64,000 bases of DNA from Actinomycetota bacterium (GTDB lineage: Bacteria; Actinomycetota; Actinomycetes; Nanopelagicales; Nanopelagicaceae): NCBI GenBank assembly GCA_947450175.1, contig CANFUR010000001.1:406-64405 (forward strand), read 5' to 3'. Every line of letters starts with the position of its first letter. The first letter of the stretch is position 1. The notes beneath the pieces are model-generated. The model saw nothing but the letters and a program-made list of their open reading frames with translations. It did not search any database and was not told where the DNA came from. Shown in pieces: positions 8,326-63,616 of the stretch. A program made the translations under genes and the position numbers.

Positions 8326-8979
8326 CTATTTCAGAACGTTAATTTTTGGAACATAGGTAATATTTTTATATGGCCAGATAACAGCAAATACGCGCCCAGT
8401 TACTCGGGATAGTGGCACAAAACCTTTGTTGATATCTTCTTGGTGATATCTAGAATCCGCACTTGCTCCGCGGTGATCTCCCATAACCCAAATCTTGCCC
8501 TTTGGCACCGTGACATCAAATTTCATATCGCTAGGAACGTTGCCGGCAAAGATGTACGGCTCTGTAATTGGCTTACCATTAACGGTTAATAAACCTGCTT
8601 TATCGCAGCAAACAACGTGGTCGCCACCAACACCAATGACACGTTTAACTAAATACTGTTTAGCCGGATTAGGTAATACGCCTACTGCCACTAAACCAGT
8701 TTTCAACTTGGCAATATATTTATTAGATGATGAATCAGTAATCTCGGGCAACCATCCAGCTGGATCGCGGAAAACAACAACATCACCGCGTGAAATATTT
8801 CGAGAAAGAAAAGGTACTTTGTTTACTGCAACGCGATCTTTGACCTGCAAAGTATTTTCCATAGATCCAGATGGAATATAGAAAAACTGAACGAGAAAAG
8901 TCTTTATAAGCAGGGAGACAACAAGTGCAACTACAACAAGGATTGGGAGCTCCCGAAGGAGGGAACCCTTACGACGCAT
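8326..8979 (-). CDS. lepB: signal peptidase I (bacterial S26A type)
   Basis: N-terminal TM helix, Ser box IPSGSMENTL, Lys box KRVIGVGGD and the GDHRGASADSR box. Confidence 0.9.
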   Translation of the reverse strand: MRRKGSLLRELPILVVVALVVSLLIKTFLVQFFYIPSGSMENTLQVKDRVAVNKVPFLSRNISRGDVVVFRDPAGWLPEITDSSSNKYIAKLKTGLVAVGVLPNPAKQYLVKRVIGVGGDHVVCCDKAGLLTVNGKPITEPYIFAGNVPSDMKFDVTVPKGKIWVMGDHRGASADSRYHQEDINKGFVPLSRVTGRVFAVIWPYKNITYVPKINVLK

Positions 8980-50349: not shown

Positions 50350-50700
50350 ATGGAACTCGAAAAATCTGAACGCCCCTGGGGGCGCTATGAAGTCCTACAG
50401 GAATCACCAACACATAAGGTCAAATGCATTTGGGTCTCCCCTGGTAAGAGACTGTCTTACCAACGCCACCAAAAACGCGCAGAGCATTGGTTTATTGTTC
50501 AAGGAACTGCATTGGTCACTATCGATGGTCAAGACCGCACATTGGGATCTGGATCCACCGTTGATTTTGCAATTGGTGTACTCCACCGCATTGCCAATAT
50601 CGGTAACGATGATGTGATCTTCGTAGAAGTTCAAACTGGCACTTACTTTGGTGAGGATGACATTGAACGCGTTGAGGATGATTTTGGACGTCAACAATGA
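50350..50700 (+). CDS. cupin-domain protein, type II phosphomannose isomerase-like
   Basis: 116 aa. ERPWGRYEVL...SYQRHQKRAEHWFIVQGTALVTIDG resembles the PMI domain of bifunctional ManC enzymes. Confidence 0.6.
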   Translation: MELEKSERPWGRYEVLQESPTHKVKCIWVSPGKRLSYQRHQKRAEHWFIVQGTALVTIDGQDRTLGSGSTVDFAIGVLHRIANIGNDDVIFVEVQTGTYFGEDDIERVEDDFGRQQ

Positions 50701-53225
50701 ATATAACGCGTGAACTTAAATCAACCTGGACCTTAAAACTAACCCCTCGCCTTGATGCATGGGATATCGAGCCAGTAACCGATGGACACAATGCTTGGCG
50801 TAATGATCCTACAAAGATTGTTCGCAAAGAGCTACCAACTTCCTTTAAAGCAACAGTGCCCGGTTGCATTCACACAGATTTGATTGAAGCAGGATTTATT
50901 GACGATATTTCTATCAACGGAAAAGAGCAGGACCAATTTTGGATTTGGAAAACCGATAGCGTTTATTCGACTGTTTTACCCAAAGATAGTTCTGGTGGAC
51001 ATAAGGATTTAGTGTTCAAAGGTTTAGACACCATTGCAACAATTTCAATTAACGGTGCTGTCCGTATGACAACAAAAAATATGCATCGCTCATATCGCTT
51101 AGATATCTCAGAGGAGATTTCAAAAGGCGATGTTGCACTAGACATTGCTTTTAAAGCACCTCTTACTGATGCCGAAGAGCATGTTGCAGAGCTAGGTCTT
51201 TATCCTCGCCCATACGACATGCCTTATAACTATCAGCGAAAGATGGCCTGTAGCTATGGCTGGGATTGGGGTCCTATTACGGTCACATCAGGAATCTGGA
51301 AACCAATTCAGATTCATGCATGGGATGTTGCCTATGTCGATCACTTAGCCGTAACACCTACAGTTGAAAATAACATTCCTTCTTTTGATTTGGATATACC
51401 AGTTAAGGGCGACCTTCGTGGCCTTTCAGCCGTAGTTCGCGTAATTGGTGCCGACGGGGGCGCGCCACTTATCAGTGAAAAACTGAATATTCATGGCTCA
51501 GCTTTTAAAGAAACCATCACAGTTGCGCAAGCAAAAATCTGGCACCCAAGGGGCCGAGGCGAACAACCTTTGTATACCGTTGAGTTTGATTTACTTGATG
51601 CCAATGGACAACTTCTTGAAACTCATTCTCGCCGAATAGGGTTTAGAAAAGTAGAACTAGATTCCTCCGCAATTAGTGATACTAAGAATCTTTTTGCAAT
51701 AAAGGTAAATGGAGAACGTCTTTGGATTCGCGGGGCAAACTGGATTCCAGATGATCCGTTTCCTACCCGTGTAACAAAAGAGCGCTACCAGCAGCGCATC
51801 AAGGACATGCTTGAAGTTAACATCAATGGAATCCGCGTATGGGGTGGCGGAATTTATGAATCCGAGGATTTCTACAATTTCTGTGATGAAGAAGGAATTG
51901 TTGTTTGGCAGGATTTCCTCTTTGCATGTGCGGCCTATCCAGAAACACCTGAAATGTTTGAAGAGGTAGCCGCTGAAGTTGAAGAAAATGTTCGCCGTTT
52001 GTCTTCTCATCCAAGTTTGGTTATCTGGTGTGGTGGAAACGAATGCCTAGAAGGTTTTCAATATTGGGGCTGGCAACCCGACCTTGCAGGACGTCCTTGG
52101 GGCGAAACCTTCTACCGTCAAACTATTCCCAACACATTAAAGAGTATTGATAACTCTCGTCCGTACATTCCTGGTTCACCTTTTTCAACTCACAGCGATG
52201 ATGTTCGCAATTTTGATTCTGGTACTAACCATATTTGGGATGTATGGAATGAAACCGGCTACGAACGATATGAGCAGTACAGCCCATCTTTTGCTGCTGA
52301 ATTTGGATTCAATGGCCCTGGTTCTTGGTCAATGCTCACACGTGCAATTGGCAGTTCTGATCTGGATTCAACGACTCCAGAGGTTGCTTACTATCAACGC
52401 GCATTTGATGGCATGACCAAGATTGCCGCAGGGCTTTCTCGCGAGTTCGCTAAACCCCCTACCGCCGGACATGCTTGGTATTTTGCGGCAGCACTTGATC
52501 AAGCGCGCGCTGTAGAGATTGGTTTAAAGCACTTTAGAAGCCTGTATGAAAGCTGTTCTGGCTCAATTTTGTGGCAGTTCAACGACATGTGGCCAGCAAT
52601 TAGCTGGGCGGTCCTAGACCATACTGGTTTTAGAAAGCTTGCTTGGCATGCCATGAAAGCGGCATATCGCCCACGCACATTAATTATTGGGCGAGTTGAT
52701 CAAGGGGCTCAAATAACTTTGCTCAATGATCATCCAGATCCATGGAAGCCACGGGTTGAAGTATTTCTGATTAACCATGTTGGCGCAGTCATTAACACTC
52801 ATCTCCTTGAAGTTGAGTTAGATCGCTACGGTGTTTTTAGGACTCCTGCAACAGAGATATTCCCAGAAATTGCCAGCGGAAGTTTTGAAGGTTTTATTTT
52901 GGCCACGTGTCCAGAAGTTCGAGTTTCCCGCCGAACAACACTCAATCCTGCAGCAGAGGCACCTCAACACGATCTTGAGTACTTTGCAAAAATAGTTGAT
53001 GGAAAACTACTCGTTGATGTTACGGCTAAAACATACATTCACGAACTTTCTATACTTCCAGAAATTATTGCACTAGGAACGCAGATAGATTCTCAAAATG
53101 TATCTCTGCTCCCAGGTGAAAACCATGTATTTACAGTCTCAGGAAAACCTGAAGACTTAGCAAAGATTTCACAATCAGTTGAGGCTATTTTGTGGTCTCA
53201 CAACAGAATCGTTAGTGGCGCATGA
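50697..53225 (+). CDS. glycoside hydrolase family 2, beta-mannosidase-like (cytoplasmic)
   Basis: 842 aa with GANWIPDD, the acid/base region WCGGNE and the nucleophile region FAAEFGF. No signal peptide. Confidence 0.8.
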   Translation: MNITRELKSTWTLKLTPRLDAWDIEPVTDGHNAWRNDPTKIVRKELPTSFKATVPGCIHTDLIEAGFIDDISINGKEQDQFWIWKTDSVYSTVLPKDSSGGHKDLVFKGLDTIATISINGAVRMTTKNMHRSYRLDISEEISKGDVALDIAFKAPLTDAEEHVAELGLYPRPYDMPYNYQRKMACSYGWDWGPITVTSGIWKPIQIHAWDVAYVDHLAVTPTVENNIPSFDLDIPVKGDLRGLSAVVRVIGADGGAPLISEKLNIHGSAFKETITVAQAKIWHPRGRGEQPLYTVEFDLLDANGQLLETHSRRIGFRKVELDSSAISDTKNLFAIKVNGERLWIRGANWIPDDPFPTRVTKERYQQRIKDMLEVNINGIRVWGGGIYESEDFYNFCDEEGIVVWQDFLFACAAYPETPEMFEEVAAEVEENVRRLSSHPSLVIWCGGNECLEGFQYWGWQPDLAGRPWGETFYRQTIPNTLKSIDNSRPYIPGSPFSTHSDDVRNFDSGTNHIWDVWNETGYERYEQYSPSFAAEFGFNGPGSWSMLTRAIGSSDLDSTTPEVAYYQRAFDGMTKIAAGLSREFAKPPTAGHAWYFAAALDQARAVEIGLKHFRSLYESCSGSILWQFNDMWPAISWAVLDHTGFRKLAWHAMKAAYRPRTLIIGRVDQGAQITLLNDHPDPWKPRVEVFLINHVGAVINTHLLEVELDRYGVFRTPATEIFPEIASGSFEGFILATCPEVRVSRRTTLNPAAEAPQHDLEYFAKIVDGKLLVDVTAKTYIHELSILPEIIALGTQIDSQNVSLLPGENHVFTVSGKPEDLAKISQSVEAILWSHNRIVSGA

Positions 53226-54598
53226 AAATAGTAATTGATGGCGCTGGCGCAAAAAATGATGGCGTTTTCAACAATGCCGCCATCATCAATGGCGCTATTG
53301 ATTCCGTGCACAAAGCCGGTGGTGGTCAGGTAGTCGTCCCGTCAGGGGGCATTTACCTGTCAGGAAGCATTGAAATAAAGGCCAACGTTGATCTGCATCT
53401 TGAGTCAGGTGCAACATTACGTGCAAGCAGTGACTACGCCGATTACACGGCACAACACAATATAAAGTCTCTAACCGGTGGAACTGTCGATGAGTTTGTT
53501 CTACCGCAACGTGCCTTCATCTGCGCCTACAAGGCGCACAACGCCCGTATTTCAGGCCATGGAACTATCGATGGCAATGCTGACGGATTTATTGCAGAAC
53601 GTGGTCGCTACATACATAAAATGCGCGGACCTATTGGCGGTAAAGACCAATACCTTGAGCGCCCATTTACGGTCTTTATGATTGAATGCAAAAACTTAAC
53701 TATCAGAGATGTAGTTATTAAAGACCCAGCTTTTTGGGCAGTACGCACAACTGGATGCAATGAGCTTTTAATCGATGGGATTCGAATCCTTACCGACCTC
53801 ATGGTTCCAAATGCTGATGGCGTTGATATTGATCGTTGTCAAAACGTGCGCATAGTCAACTGCGAGTTTGTCACTGCCGATGACTGTATTTCTTTAAAAT
53901 CTTGTTCTCAAACTTCGCAATACGGAGATGTTGCAAATATTGTGATCTCTAACTGCATTATGACCTCAACTTCAGGTGCTATAACTTTGGGCACCGAATC
54001 TGTTGGTGATATTAAAAATGTTCTGGTCAGCAACTGCATCATTAAAGATTCTCATCGCGGTTTTGCAGTTCGAGCCCGTGAAGGTGGAACAATTTCAAAT
54101 GTTCGCTTTTCAAACTCACTTGTTCACACTCGAACCTTCAGTGATATGTGGTGGGGACATGGCGAAGCACTTCATGTAACTGCATTCTCTTGGGATGATC
54201 CTTCTAAAGGAACCGATGGCAATATCGAACGAACCATGGAAGGTTTTGTTCGTGACATAACTTTTGAAAATATCACCTGCCACACCGAAGCCGGCATTTT
54301 AAATTATGCCGCCCACCCAGAACTCATTAAAGGTGTGACTTATCGAAACGTAGAGGTTCACATGCAAAAGGAGTCCAAATGGGAGCCTCGCATTGATTTA
54401 CGCCCTAATGGAATCGAATCGGTTTTGCATCGCAAACACAACGCATTTGAAATCTTTAACGTCTCAAATCTTGAATTAGATAACTGCAGTGTTATTTGGG
54501 ATAAAGCCTCACGCGATAGCTATGGTGAAGCCGTTGTTGAATCTAATTCGGTCAATGTTTCTGCTACAAATTTCGCTGAAATAATTCGCGGGGATTAA
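53222..54598 (+). CDS. glycoside hydrolase family 28-like beta-helix protein (cytoplasmic)
   Basis: 458 aa. PNADGVDIDRCQNVRIVNCEFVTADDCISLKS matches the GH28 N-x-DG-x-D / DDC pattern, with repetitive beta-helix turns. Confidence 0.7.
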   Translation: MKIVIDGAGAKNDGVFNNAAIINGAIDSVHKAGGGQVVVPSGGIYLSGSIEIKANVDLHLESGATLRASSDYADYTAQHNIKSLTGGTVDEFVLPQRAFICAYKAHNARISGHGTIDGNADGFIAERGRYIHKMRGPIGGKDQYLERPFTVFMIECKNLTIRDVVIKDPAFWAVRTTGCNELLIDGIRILTDLMVPNADGVDIDRCQNVRIVNCEFVTADDCISLKSCSQTSQYGDVANIVISNCIMTSTSGAITLGTESVGDIKNVLVSNCIIKDSHRGFAVRAREGGTISNVRFSNSLVHTRTFSDMWWGHGEALHVTAFSWDDPSKGTDGNIERTMEGFVRDITFENITCHTEAGILNYAAHPELIKGVTYRNVEVHMQKESKWEPRIDLRPNGIESVLHRKHNAFEIFNVSNLELDNCSVIWDKASRDSYGEAVVESNSVNVSATNFAEIIRGD

Positions 54599-54599
54599 A

Positions 54600-55706
54600 G
54601 TGGCAGCAACGCAAGTGCGCAAAGATATCCAAGTTCTGCGCGCCTTTGCGGTCTTGCTAGTCGTCGCCGGTCATCTTTTCCCCAGTGTTGTTAAAGGTGG
54701 CTTCATCGGCGTTGATATCTTCTTTGTGATTTCTGGCTTCGTCATTACTCAGCAGATGCTCAAGAATTACCTAACTTCTGAAAAATCCTTCCTTATTAAT
54801 TTCTACGCCAGAAGAATTCGCCGGATCCTGCCAAGTGCATTGCTGGTCACGCTAGCCACAATCTGGGCCGCCGACAGGTTCTTAGGCCCTGTCGTGTCTA
54901 ATAACGCAAAACTGGATGGCGGCTGGGCAACTATTTTCTTGAGTAACTTTCATTTTCAGGCCAACGCACTTGATTACTTTGCAGCTGGTACTCAAGTTTC
55001 TCCTCTGCAGCACTTTTGGTCATTGTCCATTGAGGAACAGTTCTATCTTTTATGGCCAACGATATTTATTCTGCTATTTGTACGTGCCACCACATTGCGA
55101 ACCAAGCAAGTATTGCTGTCAATCATCATTGGGCTGTCTCTCTTTGCCGCGCTCTATCAGAGCATGGTCAGCCAATCCCCCATATTCTTTTCAACTTCCA
55201 CCAGAATCTGGGAACTTGCAGCTGGAGCTTTGCTTGCTATTACCTCTAAATCGATTTCCTTTCCCAGATTGTTAGCACCGTTTCTTGTTCTCGTTTTATG
55301 CGCCAGTGCCTTCTTGATCCCACAAAGCATGCAGTGGCCACGATTGACTACGATTCCAATTGTTTTAGCCACACTTATTCTTCTGACTAGAAATGCACGA
55401 ATTACTTCTTTTCCATTACTAGAAAATAAAACTGCTGCCTATATTGGCGATCTTTCCTACATTATTTACTTATGGCATTGGCCCGTGCTGGTAATCACTA
55501 AGGGTTATTACGCTCAGTTTGGTTGGCAAGAAATAGCCCTTGTTATAGGGATTACCGCACTTCTATCTGTGATTACTCATCATTTTTACGAAAACCCAAT
55601 TCGATATTCACATGCACTTATTAACCGTCCAGTGATGAGCGTTGCGATAGGTGTTCTAGCCATCTCTGCAACATCACTCACGCTTTTTACACGATATCAA
55701 GGATAA
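54600..55706 (+). CDS. acyltransferase family 3 membrane protein (O-acyltransferase)
   Basis: 368 aa with about 10 TM helices and the N-terminal DIQVLRAFAVLLVVAGH motif. The GTG start is 1 nt after the GH28 stop. Confidence 0.85.
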   Translation: MAATQVRKDIQVLRAFAVLLVVAGHLFPSVVKGGFIGVDIFFVISGFVITQQMLKNYLTSEKSFLINFYARRIRRILPSALLVTLATIWAADRFLGPVVSNNAKLDGGWATIFLSNFHFQANALDYFAAGTQVSPLQHFWSLSIEEQFYLLWPTIFILLFVRATTLRTKQVLLSIIIGLSLFAALYQSMVSQSPIFFSTSTRIWELAAGALLAITSKSISFPRLLAPFLVLVLCASAFLIPQSMQWPRLTTIPIVLATLILLTRNARITSFPLLENKTAAYIGDLSYIIYLWHWPVLVITKGYYAQFGWQEIALVIGITALLSVITHHFYENPIRYSHALINRPVMSVAIGVLAISATSLTLFTRYQG

Positions 55707-55719
55707 GAAAAGAGCCCAC

Positions 55720-56748
55720 ATGAAACGTCTACTTGCCGCAACTTTGCTGGTCTGCCTATTTTTGCCAACTCCGACGGCACTGGCTGCGACAAAACTGGGC
55801 AGTCCATGTCCAACTATTAACAAAACGGTGAGCGAGAAAGACCAGAGCTTTATATGCCAGCAATCAGGTAAAAAGAAGACTTGGCAACTACTGAGCGCAG
55901 ATATGAAAATCAAAATTGAAGTAACGAAAGCAATAAATATAAGCGTCGTACCAAAATCTGTTACGGCAACAATACTCCAGGCAAGAAAAGATAAGAGTCC
56001 TTGGTTAGATCAAGAATGCTCCGTAGATTTTGCATCAACGGATACCCCTGTCTGTGAAGCAGGAGATTTGAGTTCGAAGAAGTTAATTGTTCTCTATGGA
56101 GACTCGCATGCTTCGATGTGGATGAGCGCATTAGATGTAATTGCCAAAAAGAATGGTTACAAAGTTCGCCTCTTTGCAAAGCTAGCCTGTCCTTTGGTTG
56201 AAGTTCCCATCTGGAGCTATCAACTCAATAAAGCATTCAGTGAGTGCACCCAATGGCAACAAAAGGTCTATCCACTTATAAGCGCACTAGATCCGGCGAT
56301 AGTAATAGTTACCGATCAATGGAAGCCTGCAGTAGTCGATGGAGCGAAATCTGATTTTGATACACCATTCATGTGGGAAAAAGAGTTCCCAGTTGCAATG
56401 TCTCGTATTTCAAAGATGGCGCCGAAGGTTTTTGTTGTGGGAAATAACCCAAGCCTGACTCAAGATCCCGTTGATTGTGCCAGTAAACCCAATGTCACCC
56501 TTTCCCTTTGCACGGCCGGTCGCACGCAGGCAGATAATGCTAAATACAACGCTATAGAAGCTAAGGCAGCTAAAACTGTTGGTGCAACCTATATCGACAC
56601 GGTTGCATGGGCATGTACTGATTCATTGTGCCCAATTGTGATTAATTCAAAGCTTGCCTACTTTGATCAATGGCATTTTTCGCAAAGTTATATCAAGTTT
56701 TTGACTCCAGCACTTGAAAATAGATTAGCAAGTGCATTGAAGGGCTAG
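55720..56748 (+). CDS. secreted SGNH-hydrolase-like protein (stand-alone counterpart of the OafA C-terminal domain)
   Basis: Signal peptide MKRLLAATLLVCLFLPTPTALAA. It has a GDSH block (VLYGDSHASMW) and many paired Cys. Confidence 0.55.
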   Translation: MKRLLAATLLVCLFLPTPTALAATKLGSPCPTINKTVSEKDQSFICQQSGKKKTWQLLSADMKIKIEVTKAINISVVPKSVTATILQARKDKSPWLDQECSVDFASTDTPVCEAGDLSSKKLIVLYGDSHASMWMSALDVIAKKNGYKVRLFAKLACPLVEVPIWSYQLNKAFSECTQWQQKVYPLISALDPAIVIVTDQWKPAVVDGAKSDFDTPFMWEKEFPVAMSRISKMAPKVFVVGNNPSLTQDPVDCASKPNVTLSLCTAGRTQADNAKYNAIEAKAAKTVGATYIDTVAWACTDSLCPIVINSKLAYFDQWHFSQSYIKFLTPALENRLASALKG

Positions 56749-56784
56749 ATTTTTAAAGAGGATTGTGCTTAAAAAAATAAGTAA

Positions 56785-57444
56785 TTAATTTATTGCGCGA
56801 GTAACAATCACACGGGCCTGATCGCCGTAATGCACGCTTCCTGGTTCGTAAACATCGATGCGCAAAATTTCAGGTTCAGTTATTGCACCAAGTAAAACCA
56901 ATGAATCCAACTTTGCAGCAAAAGCCTTTGCCTCAAAATGTTCATTGTTAACTCCCACAACTAACCAACCGTTATTTGCAAGTAAGGGCAATAAGTTGCG
57001 CAAGCATTCAGGACCTAAATGGCCATGAGTGAAAGTGCCTGAACTAATCAAAGCTTCATAGGGCGCATTTTCGTTGAGAACATCTTGAGTTAAATCTCGT
57101 TCATATAACTGGCGATAAACAGCACTGCCATTGGTGCGCGTTTTTAGAGCGGCTTGCTCCAACATCTCTGGCGAAATATCCATTCCATCTAAAACTACAT
57201 CTGGTCGTAAACGCGATAAATACATGCCCGTCAGCCCCGTACCCGTACCAATGTCGAGCACGCGGGCAACTGAATCAGTAACTACTTGATCAAATACTTC
57301 GCTGATTGCTTTGGGATATCGATACTGCTTGGCATCTACAAAAGAAGAGTCATACGTTGCAGCCCACTTTGCATACAACCGCTTATTATCTTCTGGGCTT
57401 TGAACCGAATAAGCCTCATCTAAGCCAAGTGCATCATCGCTCAT
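56785..57444 (-). CDS. class I SAM-dependent methyltransferase
   Basis: Start at ATG 57444 (MSDDALGL). Motif I is VLDIGTGTGLTG. It lies 10 nt downstream of the response-regulator gene. Confidence 0.75.
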   Translation of the reverse strand: MSDDALGLDEAYSVQSPEDNKRLYAKWAATYDSSFVDAKQYRYPKAISEVFDQVVTDSVARVLDIGTGTGLTGMYLSRLRPDVVLDGMDISPEMLEQAALKTRTNGSAVYRQLYERDLTQDVLNENAPYEALISSGTFTHGHLGPECLRNLLPLLANNGWLVVGVNNEHFEAKAFAAKLDSLVLLGAITEPEILRIDVYEPGSVHYGDQARVIVTRAIN

Positions 57445-57454
57445 GCCGATTAGA

Positions 57455-58165
57455 TTACTCCTGAACTGGCTCCGGCTCAGATTCTGGATAAAAGAGTTTG
57501 TACCCAACTGCGCGAACAGCTGAAATAACCTTCGGTCCACCAGCGCCCTTGATTTTAATTCGAAGGCGAGAAGCATGGGTATCTAATAAATGATCACTTG
57601 AAAAATCACTGGACCCACCGATTGCCGATAAGACTTGATCTCTAGTAAATACGCGCTTTGGTTGGTGCATCAATAATTCAATGAAATCAAACTCTGTCCG
57701 CGTTAGTGGCACGATTGCAGTACCTACCCGTAGTTCATGACTTATTAAATCAAGGGTTAATCCCCCAGCTTTTAGAAGTGTTATCTCTTGAACTTCACTT
57801 GCGCCACGTCGGCGAAGTTGATTGCCCACCCGTAAATTCAAAATTCGTGGTGAAACTGGTTTGCGGATGTAATCATCGGCACCTGCTGCCAAACACATTG
57901 CTTCATCAACTTCATCTGCCCGACTTGTCAGCATAATGATAGGAACCGAAGACTCTGCACGAATCATTCGACAGACTTCAAAACCATCGGGCTGCCCAAT
58001 ACCGATATCTAAAATAACAAGTGAAGGGTTTTGAGATTTGAAAACCTCATAGGCCGCAATCCCATCAGCTGCTTCAAGAACACGATATCCCTCATCTTCA
58101 AGAGAAATCTTCACAAAAGCGCGAACATCCTCATTGTCATCTACAACTAAAACATTTACTTTCAT
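57455..58165 (-). CDS. OmpR-family response regulator
   Basis: REC domain (VVDDNEDV, LVILDIG, KP) plus a winged-helix output (LTRTEFDFIELL, VRAVGYKL). It overlaps the kinase gene by 4 nt. Confidence 0.9.
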   Translation of the reverse strand: MKVNVLVVDDNEDVRAFVKISLEDEGYRVLEAADGIAAYEVFKSQNPSLVILDIGIGQPDGFEVCRMIRAESSVPIIMLTSRADEVDEAMCLAAGADDYIRKPVSPRILNLRVGNQLRRRGASEVQEITLLKAGGLTLDLISHELRVGTAIVPLTRTEFDFIELLMHQPKRVFTRDQVLSAIGGSSDFSSDHLLDTHASRLRIKIKGAGGPKVISAVRAVGYKLFYPESEPEPVQE

Positions 58166-59838
58166 GGTTTCTCCTTTTGTTTGATTAGTGCGTTATAACT
58201 TTTCTCTAAACTGGCTATGAGCTCTTCTTTTTTATCATGTACAAGGTCGTAGCCTGCTGCGGGACTAACACGCATCCACTCTTCAAAATCCAGAATTAAT
58301 TCGCTATCGGCTTCAAGGTTATAAAAAGCTACTGCCCCGCCCATTTGGTGTGAGGTTGCTTCTAGCTCATTGTGCGGTGACGCCTTTAAGGCATTTATTG
58401 CCTTGTGCAACACGTTCAGACGATTCGTTGAAATCAAACAATCTACCTCAGATAAATACTGTGGGAATTCAACGGTGAAAGTGCTTCCCACATTTACTTC
58501 AGACTCAACACGAATTGTTGCCGAATGCAGTTCCAAGATTCTAGAAACAATTGCTAGGCCAAGACCGGTTCCATCAATCTGGTTGGCAACGGCATTGCCT
58601 GCTCGGTAGAAACGTGTAAATAGTTTGGGCACGTCGGCGGCAGGGATGCCGATCCCCTGATCCTTAATCTCAAGACGGATGAAATTATCACCGGAATCTT
58701 TTGTAAATGAAGAGAGCGAAACTTCGATGCGAGAGCCTTCAGGGCTGAACTTAATTGCATTGGAAAGAAGATTGAGCACAACTTGAGAAATCTGGCCGCT
58801 ATTGCCCAGGATTACATAATCCTGGAGCTCTGATGCATGAAATTCAAAAGTTATGGACTTTTCATCAGTTAAGGGCGACAGGATAAAGAACTTCTTTTGA
58901 ACAATCTCCTTCAAGTAAACTTTTTCGTGCTCTGAGATCTGTTCAGCTGAATCAAGATTTGATAATGAAAGAATGCTTCCAATGACATCCAATAAAACAT
59001 TGGAATTTCGCTCGATTACACCGGTTATCTTCTCAAAATCTGATTCTCGATCATCGACTTTAAATGATCTAAGCACTTCTATATAACCGATAATCGAAGT
59101 CAACGGAGTCCGAAGTTCGTGGTTCACGGTTGCAATAAAATCATTTTTATTGCGATTGAGTTCTTCCAGGGTTTTAACTGTCGTTTCCGCACTTTCTAGC
59201 CGCTTAATCGCAATCGCTAACGCCGCAGCTTCCTGGTCAAGATTTCGACTTGCAAGCCAGTATTGATTCCTAAATGAAATACCACCAGAAATCAGAAAGA
59301 TCGAGGTCAGCAAGATCAAGGCAAGAAGTAACCAAAGATTGATTAAGGTCTTGTGACTTCTTTTCTCGGCTGAAAGGCGAATATGTGAATCTAGCTCCTG
59401 TTGGTAATCAACAACCATTGTTCGAGACTGTGCCAACATCTGATTAATGAAATCACCAGCTTTGGCCTCTAGCGCCGAGTGCATATTTTCAGGCAATAAT
59501 CCAGATGGAGCAGAAGCCAAAATTTGATCTGAAAGCTTAAGTGCATTCACGTATTCAGGAGCAGCTCTTTGACCAGTACTGGTTCCATCGGCATTTATTA
59601 CATTCAATCTCTGCGCTAAAAATGCTCGCGCAATTTCTACATCTCGCTTTGGAATCAAACCACCCAGCCACTCAGAATATCGAATCGTATAAGCAAGGCT
59701 TTCGCGCTGCGTAAAGATGATTGAGGTTGCCGTGGATTGAGCCGAGGAGAACACACGTGTTTCTTCTGATGCAAAGCGCGAACTGGAGATCATAAATCCA
59801 CTTAAAACAAGGAGATTAATGATGATCGCCACTAACAA
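58162..59838 (-). CDS. sensor histidine kinase with a ~150-aa extracytoplasmic domain and an extra ~95-aa C-terminal (possibly HPt-like) domain
   Basis: Two TM segments, H-box VNHELRTPLTSIIGY, N-box LLSNAIKFSP and G-boxes DQGIGI / GTGLGLAIV. TTG start. Confidence 0.9.
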   Translation of the reverse strand: MLVAIIINLLVLSGFMISSSRFASEETRVFSSAQSTATSIIFTQRESLAYTIRYSEWLGGLIPKRDVEIARAFLAQRLNVINADGTSTGQRAAPEYVNALKLSDQILASAPSGLLPENMHSALEAKAGDFINQMLAQSRTMVVDYQQELDSHIRLSAEKRSHKTLINLWLLLALILLTSIFLISGGISFRNQYWLASRNLDQEAAALAIAIKRLESAETTVKTLEELNRNKNDFIATVNHELRTPLTSIIGYIEVLRSFKVDDRESDFEKITGVIERNSNVLLDVIGSILSLSNLDSAEQISEHEKVYLKEIVQKKFFILSPLTDEKSITFEFHASELQDYVILGNSGQISQVVLNLLSNAIKFSPEGSRIEVSLSSFTKDSGDNFIRLEIKDQGIGIPAADVPKLFTRFYRAGNAVANQIDGTGLGLAIVSRILELHSATIRVESEVNVGSTFTVEFPQYLSEVDCLISTNRLNVLHKAINALKASPHNELEATSHQMGGAVAFYNLEADSELILDFEEWMRVSPAAGYDLVHDKKEELIASLEKSYNALIKQKEKP

Positions 59839-59904: not shown

Positions 59905-60426
59905 TTAGGCCACACTTATTTCCTTTAGAGACCAATTCCAAGGATCTAGGAACTTGGACCACTTGCTCTTGTCAGGGAAAATTATGCGGATCGGGCCACC
60001 TTGGTCGTAACCAATAGCTTTGCCACTTCGTGAAATCGCTAAATATCCATTTGCAGTTACAAAGCTAGATGCAGTATTTGTGTAAATGTAATCATTTAAA
60101 GCGCTTGTCTGAACTTTGTCGGCACCGTTAATCGATGCCAAAGCAAAAATCGATTTCAAAGGGATAGCTTTGAAGCTTTGGGTCTTTTTAACAAATGGCT
60201 CATGAATTGTGATTGTGCTTGACTTCATTGCCTTCAAATCATTCATCGAAAGCTTCTTTGTAACAGAGCCTTTTGAGATTATCAGAATGATTTCAGTAGG
60301 TGCTGGCGGCGAAACCTTTGCACCACCGTATGGATTTGCATCGGCAGCGTTACTTGCAGGAATAAATGCCACTGCAGACACAGTAAATAAAGCAAAAACT
60401 AAGGTTTTAAATAGGATTTTTCTCAT
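59905..60426 (-). CDS. periplasmic protein resembling the molybdopterin-oxidoreductase substrate-binding domain (accessory sensor candidate)
   Basis: Signal peptide ending SNA. SALNDY and GGPIRIIFP...WNWSLKEISV resemble the small Oxidored_molyb-like proteins often encoded next to sensors (from memory). Confidence 0.45.
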   Translation of the reverse strand: MRKILFKTLVFALFTVSAVAFIPASNAADANPYGGAKVSPPAPTEIILIISKGSVTKKLSMNDLKAMKSSTITIHEPFVKKTQSFKAIPLKSIFALASINGADKVQTSALNDYIYTNTASSFVTANGYLAISRSGKAIGYDQGGPIRIIFPDKSKWSKFLDPWNWSLKEISVA

Positions 60427-60925: not shown

Positions 60926-60996
60926 GAGGGGTTACCTAAATACTGTGTAGTAGACGTCGGACTTTCGTGAGGTTTACGAGAGGTTACTGATTTACC
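60926..60996. repeat. four direct copies of a GAGG(T/G)TTAC-like motif in the divergent promoter region
   Basis: GAGGGGTTACC at 60926, GAGGTTTAC at 60969, GAGGTTAC at 60980 and GATTTAC at 60989. The last three are spaced about one helical turn apart and abut a TACCTT -10-like hexamer (60993-60998). Confidence 0.5.
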
Positions 60997-61004
60997 TTCG
61001 CGAC

Positions 61005-61682
61005 ATGAACAAAGCGATTCGGGCTACCCGAAAAAAGTCAAAGGTTATGGCGATAGCAATAAAAGCCATCTCAGTTCTTTTTGTCATCGCTCTTGTTGCA
61101 GCCCCAACTGTTTTGCATAATTCATTTGGCTATGGGATTTCACCTGTTTTATCCGGCAGTATGCGCCCTTACGCACAACCTGGTGATGCATTCATCACAA
61201 TAATTCGCCCAGCTTCAGATTTAAAAGTTGGTGACATTGTCACTTTGCATTCAGCCAATTCTGCAGATTTATATGCACACAGAATTATTGAGCTCCGCCA
61301 ATTAAATGGCTTGGTGCGCATCATCACTAAAGGTGATGCAAACCCGACTGCCGAAGAAGACCCATTCCTAGTTTCACCCGATGAACAGGTTCCCGTAACT
61401 ATTGCGCGAATATTGTGGATCGGAAAAGTTCTCGTTTATCTCACTTCAGTTCAAGGCCGACAAGCAGGAATGATACTGCTCGTTGTCGCAAATGTTTTGG
61501 CATTGGTTTTATCAATGTTCAAAAAGAAAGTAAAAGAAAGAAATCTACGGCTAGAGCAGGTCTACAAGGATCTGTATGTAGAAGCACGTGCAACAAAGGC
61601 AAAAGATCAAAAGAAAATGCAACTCTACAAAGAACTCTATGCGGAGTCCCGTAACGAGTTACAAACTATCAAGGAGATCTAA
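61005..61682 (+). CDS. sipW: signal peptidase I, archaeal/SipW type (S26B) with a C-terminal TM helix and a charged repeat tail
   Basis: VLSGSMRPYAQPGDAFI (Ser box), AHRIIE (His box) and ITKGDANPTAEEDP (GDxN box) match SipW-type peptidases. N-terminal basic segment plus TM anchor. Confidence 0.85.
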   Translation: MNKAIRATRKKSKVMAIAIKAISVLFVIALVAAPTVLHNSFGYGISPVLSGSMRPYAQPGDAFITIIRPASDLKVGDIVTLHSANSADLYAHRIIELRQLNGLVRIITKGDANPTAEEDPFLVSPDEQVPVTIARILWIGKVLVYLTSVQGRQAGMILLVVANVLALVLSMFKKKVKERNLRLEQVYKDLYVEARATKAKDQKKMQLYKELYAESRNELQTIKEI

Positions 61683-62339
61683 ATGAACCTCTTATCTGGA
61701 ACAGTCATACAAAGTGCAGCTCGATTATCAGTTAAATTAGTGGTAGTTGCTGCAGCAACTGTCGGTGGCGGAGCTTTAGTTAGTTCTTCTGTCTTCGCAT
61801 CGTTAACTGCAGTTGCCACTGCATCAACGGCAGTAACAACAGGTACTTTAAAACTTACACAAACAGCCACTGGTGCATCCGGCGGCTTTGCCACTGCTAT
61901 TACAGCAATGGCTCCGGGAGACTCAATTAATCGTTACGTCACCTTGCTCAACGGCGGAACTTTAGATGCAATTACGCCTACTTTGCGAGTCGCAGACAGC
62001 GGAACAACCACACTTACTACAGATGGCACAAATGGTTTGCAGGTCACAGTTGCCGCGTGCAGCGTTGCCTGGACACAAGCAACTGGAGTTTGTTCTGGAA
62101 CAACCACCGCGGTATTGGCTTCAACCTCAGCCAATACGCTTCTTTCAAATACAGCATTGAACCTTCCATCAAATACTGCTGCTGCTTCAACTGCGCTCAA
62201 GATTACGATCGCACTTCCTGCAGGAACAGAAGTGACAACTAATGGAACATTGCCTGTTGGCACCGTCCAAGGTCTAACTCCTACATTGACTTGGACATTT
62301 ACTGAAACACAACGTACTGCAACTGCAACTAATAGTTAA
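61683..62339 (+). CDS. TasA/camelysin-like secreted protein with a SipW-type (alternate) signal peptide
   Basis: Its ATG abuts the sipW stop (TAAATG). VFASLTAVATASTAVTTGTLKL / AMAPGDS / LLNGGTLDAI / TLTWTFTETQ line up with B. subtilis TasA TWAAFNDIKSKDATFASGTLDL / NLKPGDK / FENNGSLAIK / LQFSFEATQ as remembered. Confidence 0.65.
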   Translation: MNLLSGTVIQSAARLSVKLVVVAAATVGGGALVSSSVFASLTAVATASTAVTTGTLKLTQTATGASGGFATAITAMAPGDSINRYVTLLNGGTLDAITPTLRVADSGTTTLTTDGTNGLQVTVAACSVAWTQATGVCSGTTTAVLASTSANTLLSNTALNLPSNTAAASTALKITIALPAGTEVTTNGTLPVGTVQGLTPTLTWTFTETQRTATATNS

Positions 62340-62383
62340 TTAGTCACGGGACTTAACGCAATCGGAGAGGAGGCAAGACAACT

Positions 62384-63169
62384 GTGAGGATTGTTCGTCT
62401 TGCCACCATCGCAGCTCTGGTAGGTGCCATAACTATGGCACCTACCGAGTTGGGATCGGCCGAAGCTGTCGTTACTGCCAAAGCCACTGCCGCTTCAATG
62501 TCGGTCGGTACAACACAATTCGCAGCAGTTGCTGGTGCAACATCTGCATCAACTACAGCAGCTGCATATCTTCTTCCTACATTTACAGCAGGTTGCGTCC
62601 AAGCGCGCAATACATCTGGAATCATCTCTTCTGGATCCACAACCATCGGAATTGCAACATCAACCACCGGTTATATAGTCGGCATGGTGGTTACTGCTGG
62701 TGTAGCTGGAATTCAAACAGGTTCTAAGATTGTGAGCATAAAAGCAACAGCACCAAGAAACATTGTGATTTCCTTGGCTACTACAGCAAGTATTGCAAAC
62801 GGTACGGCAATAACTGGTAGTGGTTGTTGGCAGCAATATTTCAATGTAAATAACATCAAACCACTTGCATTAGTATCTTTTGGAATCTCCCAAGCCGTAA
62901 CTTCTAGCGGCACAGACACAATCACATTACAAAAGTGTGCCGGTACATGGACAGAAAGCACTGGTGTCTGCTCTGGAGCTATTACAACCATTGTCACAAC
63001 CACAGTAGGTGTGACAAGTGCGGTCTTTACGGTGGCTACGGCGCTGGCTGCGTCCACTGGAACTGCCCGCCTTCGAGCATTGGCGACAATTGATGGAATT
63101 ACCTCAACAATTTCTATCAACGTACGTGCTGGAACTGATTTACGCGCTCCAATTACCTCTAACTCTTAA
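62384..63169 (+). CDS. second TasA-like / alternate-signal-peptide secreted protein (divergent paralog)
   Basis: GTG start after a GGAGAGGAGG RBS, with an N-terminal signal-like segment. It shares the C-x10-C loop (CAGTWTESTGVCSG versus CSVAWTQATGVCSG) and the Thr/Ala/Ser/Gly-rich beta-type composition with the upstream gene. Confidence 0.5.
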   Translation: MRIVRLATIAALVGAITMAPTELGSAEAVVTAKATAASMSVGTTQFAAVAGATSASTTAAAYLLPTFTAGCVQARNTSGIISSGSTTIGIATSTTGYIVGMVVTAGVAGIQTGSKIVSIKATAPRNIVISLATTASIANGTAITGSGCWQQYFNVNNIKPLALVSFGISQAVTSSGTDTITLQKCAGTWTESTGVCSGAITTIVTTTVGVTSAVFTVATALAASTGTARLRALATIDGITSTISINVRAGTDLRAPITSNS

Positions 63170-63301
63170 CCTGCGCACTCCCGCTTAGGCTCGCACCCCG
63201 CCCCAAACTCTCAGCATCCACTCAGGTGCCGTGGACCATTTCCTCAACTCTCCCGCCCATAGTTGCCCCATTCCCACTCGAGGGCTATCGAAAGGCACAA
63301 C

Positions 63302-63550
63302 ATGAAGAAGATCCTCACAGCATCACTAGTTGCACTTGCATTGGTAACAACATCAGTTTCAGCTAATGCAGCTGGCACTACAACAATCAAAAAGCCTTCA
63401 GGCGCAGCTGCCGAAGGTACTGCAGCGCATGAATCAAGCGAGACAGGCGAAACGCAGAAGAAGGAAGCAACTGCACCTAAGAAGGCGACTTCTAAGAAGA
63501 CTGCGACAAAGAAGCCAGTTGCTAAGAAATCAAAGAAAGCAACTAAGTAA
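63302..63550 (+). CDS. small secreted Lys-rich intrinsically disordered protein
   Basis: ATG at 63302 after a GAAAGG RBS. Signal peptide MKKILTASLVALALVTTSVSANA. The mature ~59 aa lack hydrophobic residues and end in KK-rich repeats. Confidence 0.55.
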   Translation: MKKILTASLVALALVTTSVSANAAGTTTIKKPSGAAAEGTAAHESSETGETQKKEATAPKKATSKKTATKKPVAKKSKKATK

Positions 63551-63573
63551 TTAAGTAACTAGATTTCTCCGAA

Positions 63574-63611
63574 TAAAAAACTCCGCCATCGAGGGAAGGC
63601 GGAGTTTTTTA
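63574..63611. terminator. bidirectional rho-independent terminator
   Basis: AAAAAA-CTCCGCC-atcgagggaa-GGCGGAG-TTTTTT between convergent genes. Confidence 0.75.
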
Positions 63612-63616
63612 TTGCC

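Follow-up and report, generated by a model that had tools for sequence, protein, structure and literature searches.

A candidate SipW/TasA-type extracellular-fibre locus next to a two-component system in a Nanopelagicaceae genome

Extracellular fibres of the TasA type have been studied experimentally in Bacillus and, lately, in archaea. In Bacillus subtilis, the TasA fibres assemble by donor strand (PMC10151520; also PMC9674648), and TapA donates its N-terminus to nucleate the filaments (PMC10151520). In Bacillus cereus, which carries sipW-tasA ... calY, the two paralogues differ in behaviour, and abundant fibres are formed by one of them (PMC4292775). The archaeal Tafi and AbpX/AbpA pilins are also assembled by strand donation. 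Here, a locus at 61005-63550 of a 64-kb window (the whole stretch of DNA that was analysed; contig CANFUR010000001.1, Nanopelagicaceae, G+C about 45%) was compared with these systems. Four open reading frames (ORFs) lie on the plus strand within it, and their coordinates agree with an initial annotation, which had proposed a SipW-type signal peptidase coupled to two TasA-like secreted proteins. That observation was borne out, and most of its interpretation holds up. On balance, the locus appears to encode an extracellular-fibre system of the SipW/TasA kind in its actinobacterial form. A conserved promoter and a divergent two-component cluster upstream probably belong to the same functional unit, and the module probably builds extracellular fibres under the control of this two-component system. 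The features are collected in Table 1.

The first gene encodes a signal peptidase I of the archaeal/endoplasmic-reticulum (ER) type. The protein scored 66.1 bits with the model TIGR02228 (curated cutoff 51.85), which places it in the archaeal/ER-type family (MEROPS S26B), and only 20 bits with the bacterial-type model TIGR02227 (cutoff 47). Its best matches among the solved structures are SEC11A and SEC11C, subunits of the human signal peptidase complex. Ser52 (SGSM), His92 (AHR), and Asp111 (GDAN) aligned with the matching motifs of SEC11A (7p2p), and all three residues are unchanged in the 37 distinct relatives. In 9rjb, the SEC11A chain has SGAM instead of SGSM where the serine motif aligns; the serine substituted in that chain is taken to be the catalytic residue. 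By alignment, the enzyme thus has a Ser-His(-Asp) catalytic set in place of the bacterial Ser-Lys dyad. An archaeal-type enzyme with Ser/His/GDxN boxes had been proposed at the outset; the family score and the SEC11A alignment bear this out, both the catalytic serine and the histidine being present. Two hydrophobic segments (residues 11-42 and 151-176, from hydropathy) bracket the catalytic region; basic residues precede the first segment and follow the second. This hydropathy pattern predicts a membrane-anchored peptidase with the catalytic domain outside. The predicted cytoplasmic tail (residues about 166-225; 61500-61682) carries a doubled motif, VYKDLYVEAR ... LYKELYAESR, and the first copy, (E/Q)xVY(K/R)(D/E)LYxE, is kept in nearly all of the 37 distinct relatives. 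A housekeeping LepB, adjoining the gene for ribosomal protein L19, is encoded elsewhere in the window (8326-8979, minus strand), as had been annotated. It scored 134.9 bits with TIGR02227 (cutoff 47). The peptidase of the locus is therefore a second, different signal peptidase.

The peptidase gene is directly followed by the gene of a 218-aa protein. As first described, the TAA stop codon abuts the ATG (TAAATG at 61680-61685); AAGGAG sits 8 nt upstream of this ATG. The protein matched the Pfam family PF12389 (TasA/camelysin) over residues 22-212 with 32.0 bits, above the gathering threshold of 22.5, and has more than 941 relatives in the databases. An AlphaFold2 monomer model was built on 40 relatives. 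It has a β core with a pLDDT of 84-96 from about residue 70, and the N-terminal 64 residues are of low confidence. The top three Foldseek matches of this model in the Protein Data Bank (PDB) are all TasA, namely 8aur (the TasA fibre) and 5of1 and 5of2 (TasA crystals), with a probability of 1.00. The family score and the structure matches agree with the initial assignment to TasA/camelysin. The motifs on which that assignment was based (GTLKL, MAPGDS, and others) can be aligned with the mature chain of TasA in 8aur, and in a six-sequence alignment including this chain, GTL, PGD, QG, and the C-terminal F are invariant. Cleavage is predicted after VFA39, and F38, A39, L41, and A43 around the predicted site are near-invariant within the family. 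The predicted mature protein has 179 residues, a mass of 17.6 kDa, a pI of 4.9, and 26% Thr. Cys126 and Cys137 are also invariant in the family. None of the SipW-cognate signal-peptide models was among the NCBIfam matches at E up to 1, although the release may lack those short models.

The third gene encodes a 261-aa protein, and has a GTG start with a ribosome-binding site (GGAGAGGAGG) 10 nt upstream. No Pfam or NCBIfam match, PF12389 included, was found for this protein, and only 33 word-indexed relatives were identified. Its AlphaFold2 monomer model is all-β (pLDDT 78.7), and whole-protein structural membership in the TasA family is not claimed from this model. A pairwise BLAST match joins the 218-aa and 261-aa proteins around CSVAWTQATGVCS / CAGTWTESTGVCS (E 2e-4), and direct profile-profile comparison of their families gave 90.6%. 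The relationship was further traced through 80 species-level actinobacterial loci from one genome scan, 75 of which have enough sequence downstream of the TasA-like gene. In 67 of these 75, an ORF of about 172-200 aa lies directly 3' of the TasA-like gene. The family of this third gene, defined here (about 180 aa; alignment of 63 sequences), has no Pfam domain and no curated model; its members are named 'hypothetical protein', including the one in a cultured Nanopelagicaceae genome. With hhalign, the third-gene family matched the 261-aa family at 99.4% (E 2.8e-21) over the full length, an insert of about 80 residues appearing as a gap. Its match to the TasA-like family (97.4%, E 1.1e-11) runs through the region of the cleavage site, that of the PGD/N-G motifs, and the Cys-Cys loop. 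This bridging family is the most telling link between the 218-aa and 261-aa proteins. These profile comparisons identify the 261-aa protein as an enlarged member of the third-gene family and a remote TasA-like paralogue. The long form was found in only 5 of the 67 loci. Thus the divergent paralogue of the initial annotation stands by profile comparison (90.6%, 99.4%, and 97.4%), and not by a curated-family match or a TasA fold match. Likewise, of the two TasA jelly rolls that were looked for, the one of the 218-aa protein was found (8aur, 5of1, and 5of2) and the one of the 261-aa protein was not. The N-terminal segment of the 261-aa protein, VVTAKATAASMS-VGTTQF, resembles that of the 218-aa protein, and a cleavage after AEA28 is predicted.

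The peptidase and TasA-like genes are kept together across the phylum. A peptidase homologue adjoins the TasA-like gene in 75 of the 80 loci, upstream in 56 and downstream in 19, so this arrangement is not due to chance. The TasA-like gene is thus genetically linked to a dedicated S26B-type peptidase. Together with the third gene directly downstream in 67 of 75 loci, this answers the question of co-occurrence across Actinomycetota in favour of a conserved trio. The loci span the Nanopelagicales, the Microbacteriaceae (Rhodoluna and Clavibacter), the Frankiales, Arthrobacter/Pseudarthrobacter, Kineococcus, and the Pseudonocardiales (Actinosynnema, Amycolatopsis, Lentzea, Umezawaea, and Actinokineospora). 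The closest species-level relatives are from uncultured actinobacterial genomes and from Candidatus Planktophila/Nanopelagicaceae, including complete chromosomes of 1.49-1.50 Mb; several metagenome-assembled genomes hold identical copies of the locus. Two tandem TasA-like genes of the major type were observed in one locus (L033:1-1346), and two tandem peptidase paralogues in two others (L016:4288-5899 and L018:892-2488). These tandem duplicates indicate that the copy number of the module varies. In five loci of the Pseudonocardiales/Frankiaceae (L054, L055, L068, L072, and L076), the order is inverted, with the TasA-like gene first, then the third gene, then the peptidase. The mechanically called peptidase ORFs of these five loci are far longer (300-550 aa), which reflects either over-extension in high-G+C DNA or real extra domains.

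The 75 nt before the peptidase ATG were aligned among 36 relatives, with the consensus tGTGAgGTTa.CGTGAGGTT....cc.TAcCTTCa.caCATG. The most informative block of this alignment is a tandem direct repeat, GTGAGGTT-N3-GAGAGGTT, which is in register with the ATG in 24 of the 36 relatives (relaxed pattern). In the 64-kb window, the repeat pattern has this sole match, with 0 mismatches. A TAnnnT hexamer occupies -12 to -7 in 29 of the 36 relatives, and is exactly TACCTT in 14; the distance between repeat and hexamer is 7 nt. No Shine-Dalgarno sequence precedes the peptidase ATG at 61005, and the distance from the -10 hexamer to the ATG suggests that the mRNA is leaderless. A coding N-terminal extension was considered for this upstream block and rejected: the window and several relatives have no in-frame start, and a TAG lies at 60951-60953. 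Moreover, the 8-mer is repeated at a distance of 11 bp in a different frame and is conserved where it is untranslatable, which indicates a signal at the DNA level. Tandem repeats with an 11-bp period just 5' of a -10 hexamer are the layout of PhoB-type class II promoters. The conserved repeats beside TACCTT suggest a candidate OmpR/PhoB-activated promoter. Another conserved block, 'AttGTgtAg' in the 36 upstream regions, lies at -63 to -55; its GTGTAG-containing counterpart in the window is 22 bp (two helical turns) 5' of the first repeat. It is possibly a third half-site or an element of the divergent promoter.

On the minus strand upstream of this region, two response regulators, a sensor histidine kinase, and a secreted protein are encoded. 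The best NCBIfam matches of the 236-aa regulator are MtrA and PhoB, both below cutoff. For the C-terminal extension of the kinase (about 95 residues, ~461-558; 58162-58455), no Pfam match and no PDB sequence match were found, and an HPt domain in this extension, which would have implied a four-step phosphorelay, was dropped for that reason. A signal sequence is visible at the N-terminus of the 173-aa protein. Relative to the TasA-like gene, homologues of the single-domain regulator, the kinase, and the OmpR/PhoB-type regulator keep constant positions (about -1.2, -3.5, and -4.2 kb, minus strand) across about 29 loci of the Nanopelagicales type, most of which also encode the 173-aa protein, at about -1.75 kb. 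Of the 80 loci, 46 contain an OmpR-type regulator with a score of 130 bits or more, which is arranged differently in the Pseudonocardiales.

It is possible, though rather unlikely, that the two-component cluster is kept by synteny alone and controls other genes, and that the repeats bind another factor or belong to the divergent promoter. Several actinobacterial orders keep the fibre genes without the cluster, a further conserved element lies at -63 to -55, and binding of the regulator to the repeats is a prediction from sequence. However, the offsets are fixed over about 29 loci although the proteins have diverged to 50-60% identity. The position of the 11-bp-period repeats, 7 nt 5' of the -10 hexamer, matches the established class II layout, and an OmpR-type regulator also adjoins the module in the Pseudonocardiales, in the other arrangement. 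Control of the operon by the neighbouring cluster is therefore preferred.

A second alternative, which we regard as distinctly improbable, is that both proteins, once secreted and cut by the peptidase, form no fibres. They would remain monomers or make up a sheet-like wall coat on these tiny cells, for example a barrier against grazers or phages. The mature proteins are rich in Thr, Ala, Ser, and Gly with few charged residues, as are many surface-layer proteins, and the available models of both are monomeric. Surface structures have been tied to grazing resistance in freshwater Actinobacteria (Tarao 2009, reference 102 of PMC12817590). On the other side, the free N-terminal segment has the length of the TasA donor strand and is strongly conserved. 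The predicted mature N-terminus of the 218-aa protein (SLTAVATASTAV-TTGTLKL, following VFA39) gives a gap-free alignment with AFNDIKSKDATF-ASGTLDL of the mature TasA chain in 8aur, with the same spacing of 12 residues from the predicted cleavage site to GTL. The low confidence of this segment in the monomer model is expected of a strand that needs a partner. Furthermore, the TasA-superfamily proteins covered here (TasA, AbpA, AbpX, and Tafi) all polymerise by strand donation. These points argue for assembly of the 218-aa protein into fibres.

Slightly less probable again is that the 261-aa protein is an independent secreted adhesin or binding protein, which shares the peptidase and the operon and is not a component of the fibre. 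It has no PF12389 match and no TasA structure match, and its charge is opposite to that of the major subunit (pI 9.7 vs 4.9). Its insert (residues about 70-148; 62591-62827), bounded by Cys71 and Cys148, is of a kind otherwise known from giant surface proteins. In an exhaustive profile search, the insert alone matched giant proteins of 900-3777 aa, in which it is repeated in tandem up to 15 times; some of these proteins carry PATR repeats, RHS repeats, or a PEP-CTERM signal. The insert and these repeats have a common motif, ...TSTTGxxVGMxVxGxGIxxGxxI...I(T/S)(I/L)S.., and 38% pairwise identity; the repeat domain (about 75 residues) has no Pfam model. Nevertheless, the 261-aa protein shows profile homology over its full length to the third-gene family, and this family does so in turn to the TasA-like one. 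The C-terminal ...TNS ending is common to the major subunit, and the gene position directly after the major subunit gene holds in 67 of 75 loci. A role as a minor subunit is thus preferred for the 261-aa protein. That the 218-aa protein is a secreted metalloprotease, as the PF12389 family name 'Camelysin metallo-endopeptidase' (Peptidase_M73) might imply, is very improbable, since the predicted mature protein with no histidine and 6 acidic residues has no HExxH-type metal site, and its jelly-roll fold matches TasA, a structural fibre protein.

Several results weigh against the reading of the locus as a SipW/TasA-type fibre system. The peptidase scored 55 bits with the Bacillus SipW equivalog model NF046067 (cutoff 190), and the 218-aa protein 12.9 bits with the Bacillus TasA equivalog model NF046066 (cutoff 450). 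By these models, the peptidase is SipW-like in its working but is not a SipW orthologue, and the 218-aa protein is a member of the TasA family but is not a TasA orthologue. The structural similarity of the 218-aa model to TasA is low (TM 0.45-0.51, identity 10-14%). A search of the PDB sequences with the family profile of this protein did not reach TasA and gave only weak unrelated matches, so its link to TasA comes from Pfam and the fold comparison. TasA is missing from the 50 PDB matches listed for the 261-aa model, which include only weak generic jelly rolls. The structure models are of monomers. Neither a TapA-like protein nor an anchor such as a sortase signal was found in the operon. At 3 mismatches, 0.53 chance matches of the repeat pattern are expected in the window, and the weight of the repeat is thus placed on its conservation and not on the single site. 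The loci of Arthrobacter and the Frankiales are without the two-component cluster.

A mechanism may be proposed on this basis. The histidine kinase would sense an external signal, perhaps together with the small secreted protein encoded alongside, and would phosphorylate the OmpR/PhoB-type regulator. The single-domain regulator might act as a modulator or a phosphate sink. The phosphorylated regulator would bind the tandem GTGAGGTT repeats 5' of TACCTT, and a leaderless mRNA of the three genes would be produced. The peptidase, with its Ser/His/Asp site outside the membrane, would remove the unusual signal peptides, after VFA39 of the 218-aa protein and after AEA28 of the 261-aa protein. The mature acidic 17.6-kDa jelly-roll subunit would polymerise in a TasA-like manner, by insertion of its free 12-residue N-terminal strand into the next subunit. 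The basic 261-aa protein might be a low-copy subunit that starts or tips the fibre, and its insert might display, in this lineage, a repeat domain of the giant-surface-protein kind. Taken as a whole, the proposal is tentative that the Nanopelagicales (acI) switch on TasA-type donor-strand fibres by a dedicated two-component system, and that a new minor-subunit family, here with an adhesin-type repeat domain, starts or tips the fibre.

Downstream of the trio, the 82-aa gene was rejected as a part of the module. Its start at ATG 63302 agrees with the public gene calls. The product has an ordinary signal peptide (with cleavage between SANA and AG) and a mature part of 59 residues with 25% lysine and a pI of 10.2. 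The secreted Lys-rich protein of the initial annotation therefore exists as an ORF, but is not conserved and lies outside the module: the only homologues found came from copies of the same genome, and two close relatives (L005 and L052) have convergent genes at its position. Weak NCBIfam matches to LpfA and Asr (E 0.02-0.06) were taken as noise. With 43% C against 18% G and no predicted structure, the 132-nt spacer between the 261-aa and 82-aa genes (63170-63301) looks like a Rho-utilisation site, and Rho-dependent termination there would part the 82-aa gene transcriptionally from the trio. The strong terminator annotated at the end of the unit is borne out by folding (Table 1), as none of 200 shuffles (0/200) folds as well; it is common to the operon and a convergent isochorismatase-family gene. 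A simple promoter/terminator scan listed neither this hairpin nor the conserved promoter. Beyond the two-component cluster (50697-57576), genes for a GH2 glycosidase, a GH28 glycosidase, an Acyl_transf_3 protein, an SGNH protein, and a methyltransferase were observed. Their products may act in polysaccharide degradation or modification.

Table 1. Coordinates of the features in and around the locus (positions in the 64-kb window)
Feature	Position	Strand	Basis or remark
OmpR/PhoB-family response regulator, 236 aa, candidate operon activator	57455..58165	-	Pfam Response_reg and Trans_reg_C
Sensor histidine kinase, 558 aa	58162..59838	-	Pfam HisKA and HATPase_c
Secreted protein, 173 aa, partial molybdopterin-oxidoreductase-like domain	59905..60426	-	Oxidored_molyb, 26.3 bits (gathering threshold, GA, 24)
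Single-domain (CheY-like) response regulator, 129 aa	60454..60843	-, divergent from the fibre operon	Response_reg, 109.7 bits
GTGTAGTA	60945..60952	+	Conserved 'AttGTgtAg' block at -63 to -55
Tandem direct repeat GTGAGGTT-N3-GAGAGGTT, 11-bp period	60967..60985 (60967-60974, 60978-60985)	+	Candidate OmpR/PhoB-type site replacing the -35 box
TACCTT, -10-like hexamer	60993..60998	+	Ends 6 nt before ATG 61005
Archaeal/ER-type (SipW-like) signal peptidase I, 225 aa	61005..61682	+	TIGR02228, catalytic residues, two predicted membrane spans
Putative major TasA-like subunit, 218 aa	61683..62339	+	PF12389 match, Foldseek TasA matches
Putative minor TasA-like subunit, long form, 261 aa	62384..63169	+	Profile-profile comparison; jelly-roll part with insert of about 80 residues
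Secreted Lys-rich protein, 82 aa, doubtful member	63302..63550	+	Lineage-specific
Bidirectional intrinsic terminator	63572..63613		Hairpin -25.6 kcal/mol, z = -5.1; A-run before, U-run after

The existence of TasA homologues in this phylum is already known to specialists. PF12389 homologues in Actinobacteriota have been reported (PMC9245690), a 2026 preprint places Actinomycetota sequences within the central TasA cluster, and NCBI already lists some relatives of the 218-aa protein under the name 'TasA family protein [Candidatus Planktophila sp.]'. The initial annotation had stated that no equivalent module was described in Actinomycetota. This holds for experiments, but the homologues themselves had been noted in these sources. 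No functional study of the module in Actinomycetota or Nanopelagicales was found among open-access papers and preprints, an absence that is no proof, and a recent paper on the cultivation of Nanopelagicales (PMC12817590) does not mention the locus. The uncurated minor-subunit family, its domain-insertion variant, and the conserved two-component cluster with its repeat-bearing, apparently leaderless promoter may be new.

The module is widespread in Actinomycetota, as judged from the 80 loci. The Nanopelagicales (acI) are the most abundant freshwater bacterioplankton, and are usually described as free-living and streamlined. Seven linked genes, of the operon and the regulatory cluster, are kept in their genomes of about 1.5 Mb, which implies a selected function. 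If the fibre reading is true, these ultra-small cells might be able to attach or aggregate under certain conditions, or be shielded from grazers and phages by a coat; in that case, the TasA system of actinobacteria might have had the three-gene module as its ancestral form. The locus is carried by cultured isolates with complete genomes, on the chromosomes of JirE-27 (named in PMC12817590), MRE-196, and MRE-182. Its presence in cultured, ecologically dominant organisms makes the fibre prediction directly testable. The minor-subunit family and the candidate regulator-binding site could also enter annotation resources.

Comparison with the known systems shows both common and distinct features. 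The candidate promoter shares with the pho box of PhoB/OmpR class II promoters the tandem repeats of 11-bp period right before the -10 hexamer, in place of a -35 box. However, the repeat sequence GTGAGGTT is different from that box, none of the named NCBIfam equivalogs scores the regulator above its cutoff, and the transcript is apparently leaderless. In the haloarchaeal Tafi and the archaeal AbpX/AbpA systems, too, a single locus brings together a major pilin of the TasA superfamily, a minor pilin, a dedicated peptidase of the TIGR02228 type, and in many cases a regulator. These systems belong to archaeal hosts; Tafi uses Tat signals, and the AbpX loci have DUF5305 accessory subunits and ten-span peptidases, none of which was seen here.

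The tapA-sipW-tasA operon of B. subtilis likewise encodes a dedicated ER/archaeal-type signal peptidase with its substrates. In both cases, the major subunit is a PF12389 member of jelly-roll fold, with a free N-terminal segment of the same length before GTL, and the peptidase gene abuts its neighbour, which suggests coupled translation. The differences are considerable. The present locus is without a TapA homologue (no match to a TapA model in NCBIfam or Pfam), and the accessory protein is instead a TasA-like paralogue. Identity to TasA is 10-14%, the long helical insert of TasA is absent from the 218-aa protein, and this protein has a Cys-Cys loop. Both Bacillus equivalog models are far below their cutoffs. 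Regulation here appears to be via the adjacent OmpR-type two-component system, whereas SinR/Spo0A are used in Bacillus. The closest analogue in gene content is B. cereus, with SipW, two TasA paralogues, and no TapA (PMC4292775). Both B. cereus paralogues are clear PF12389 members of similar size, whereas the second protein here belongs to a shorter, highly diverged family without a curated model, and carries a repeat insert in this lineage.

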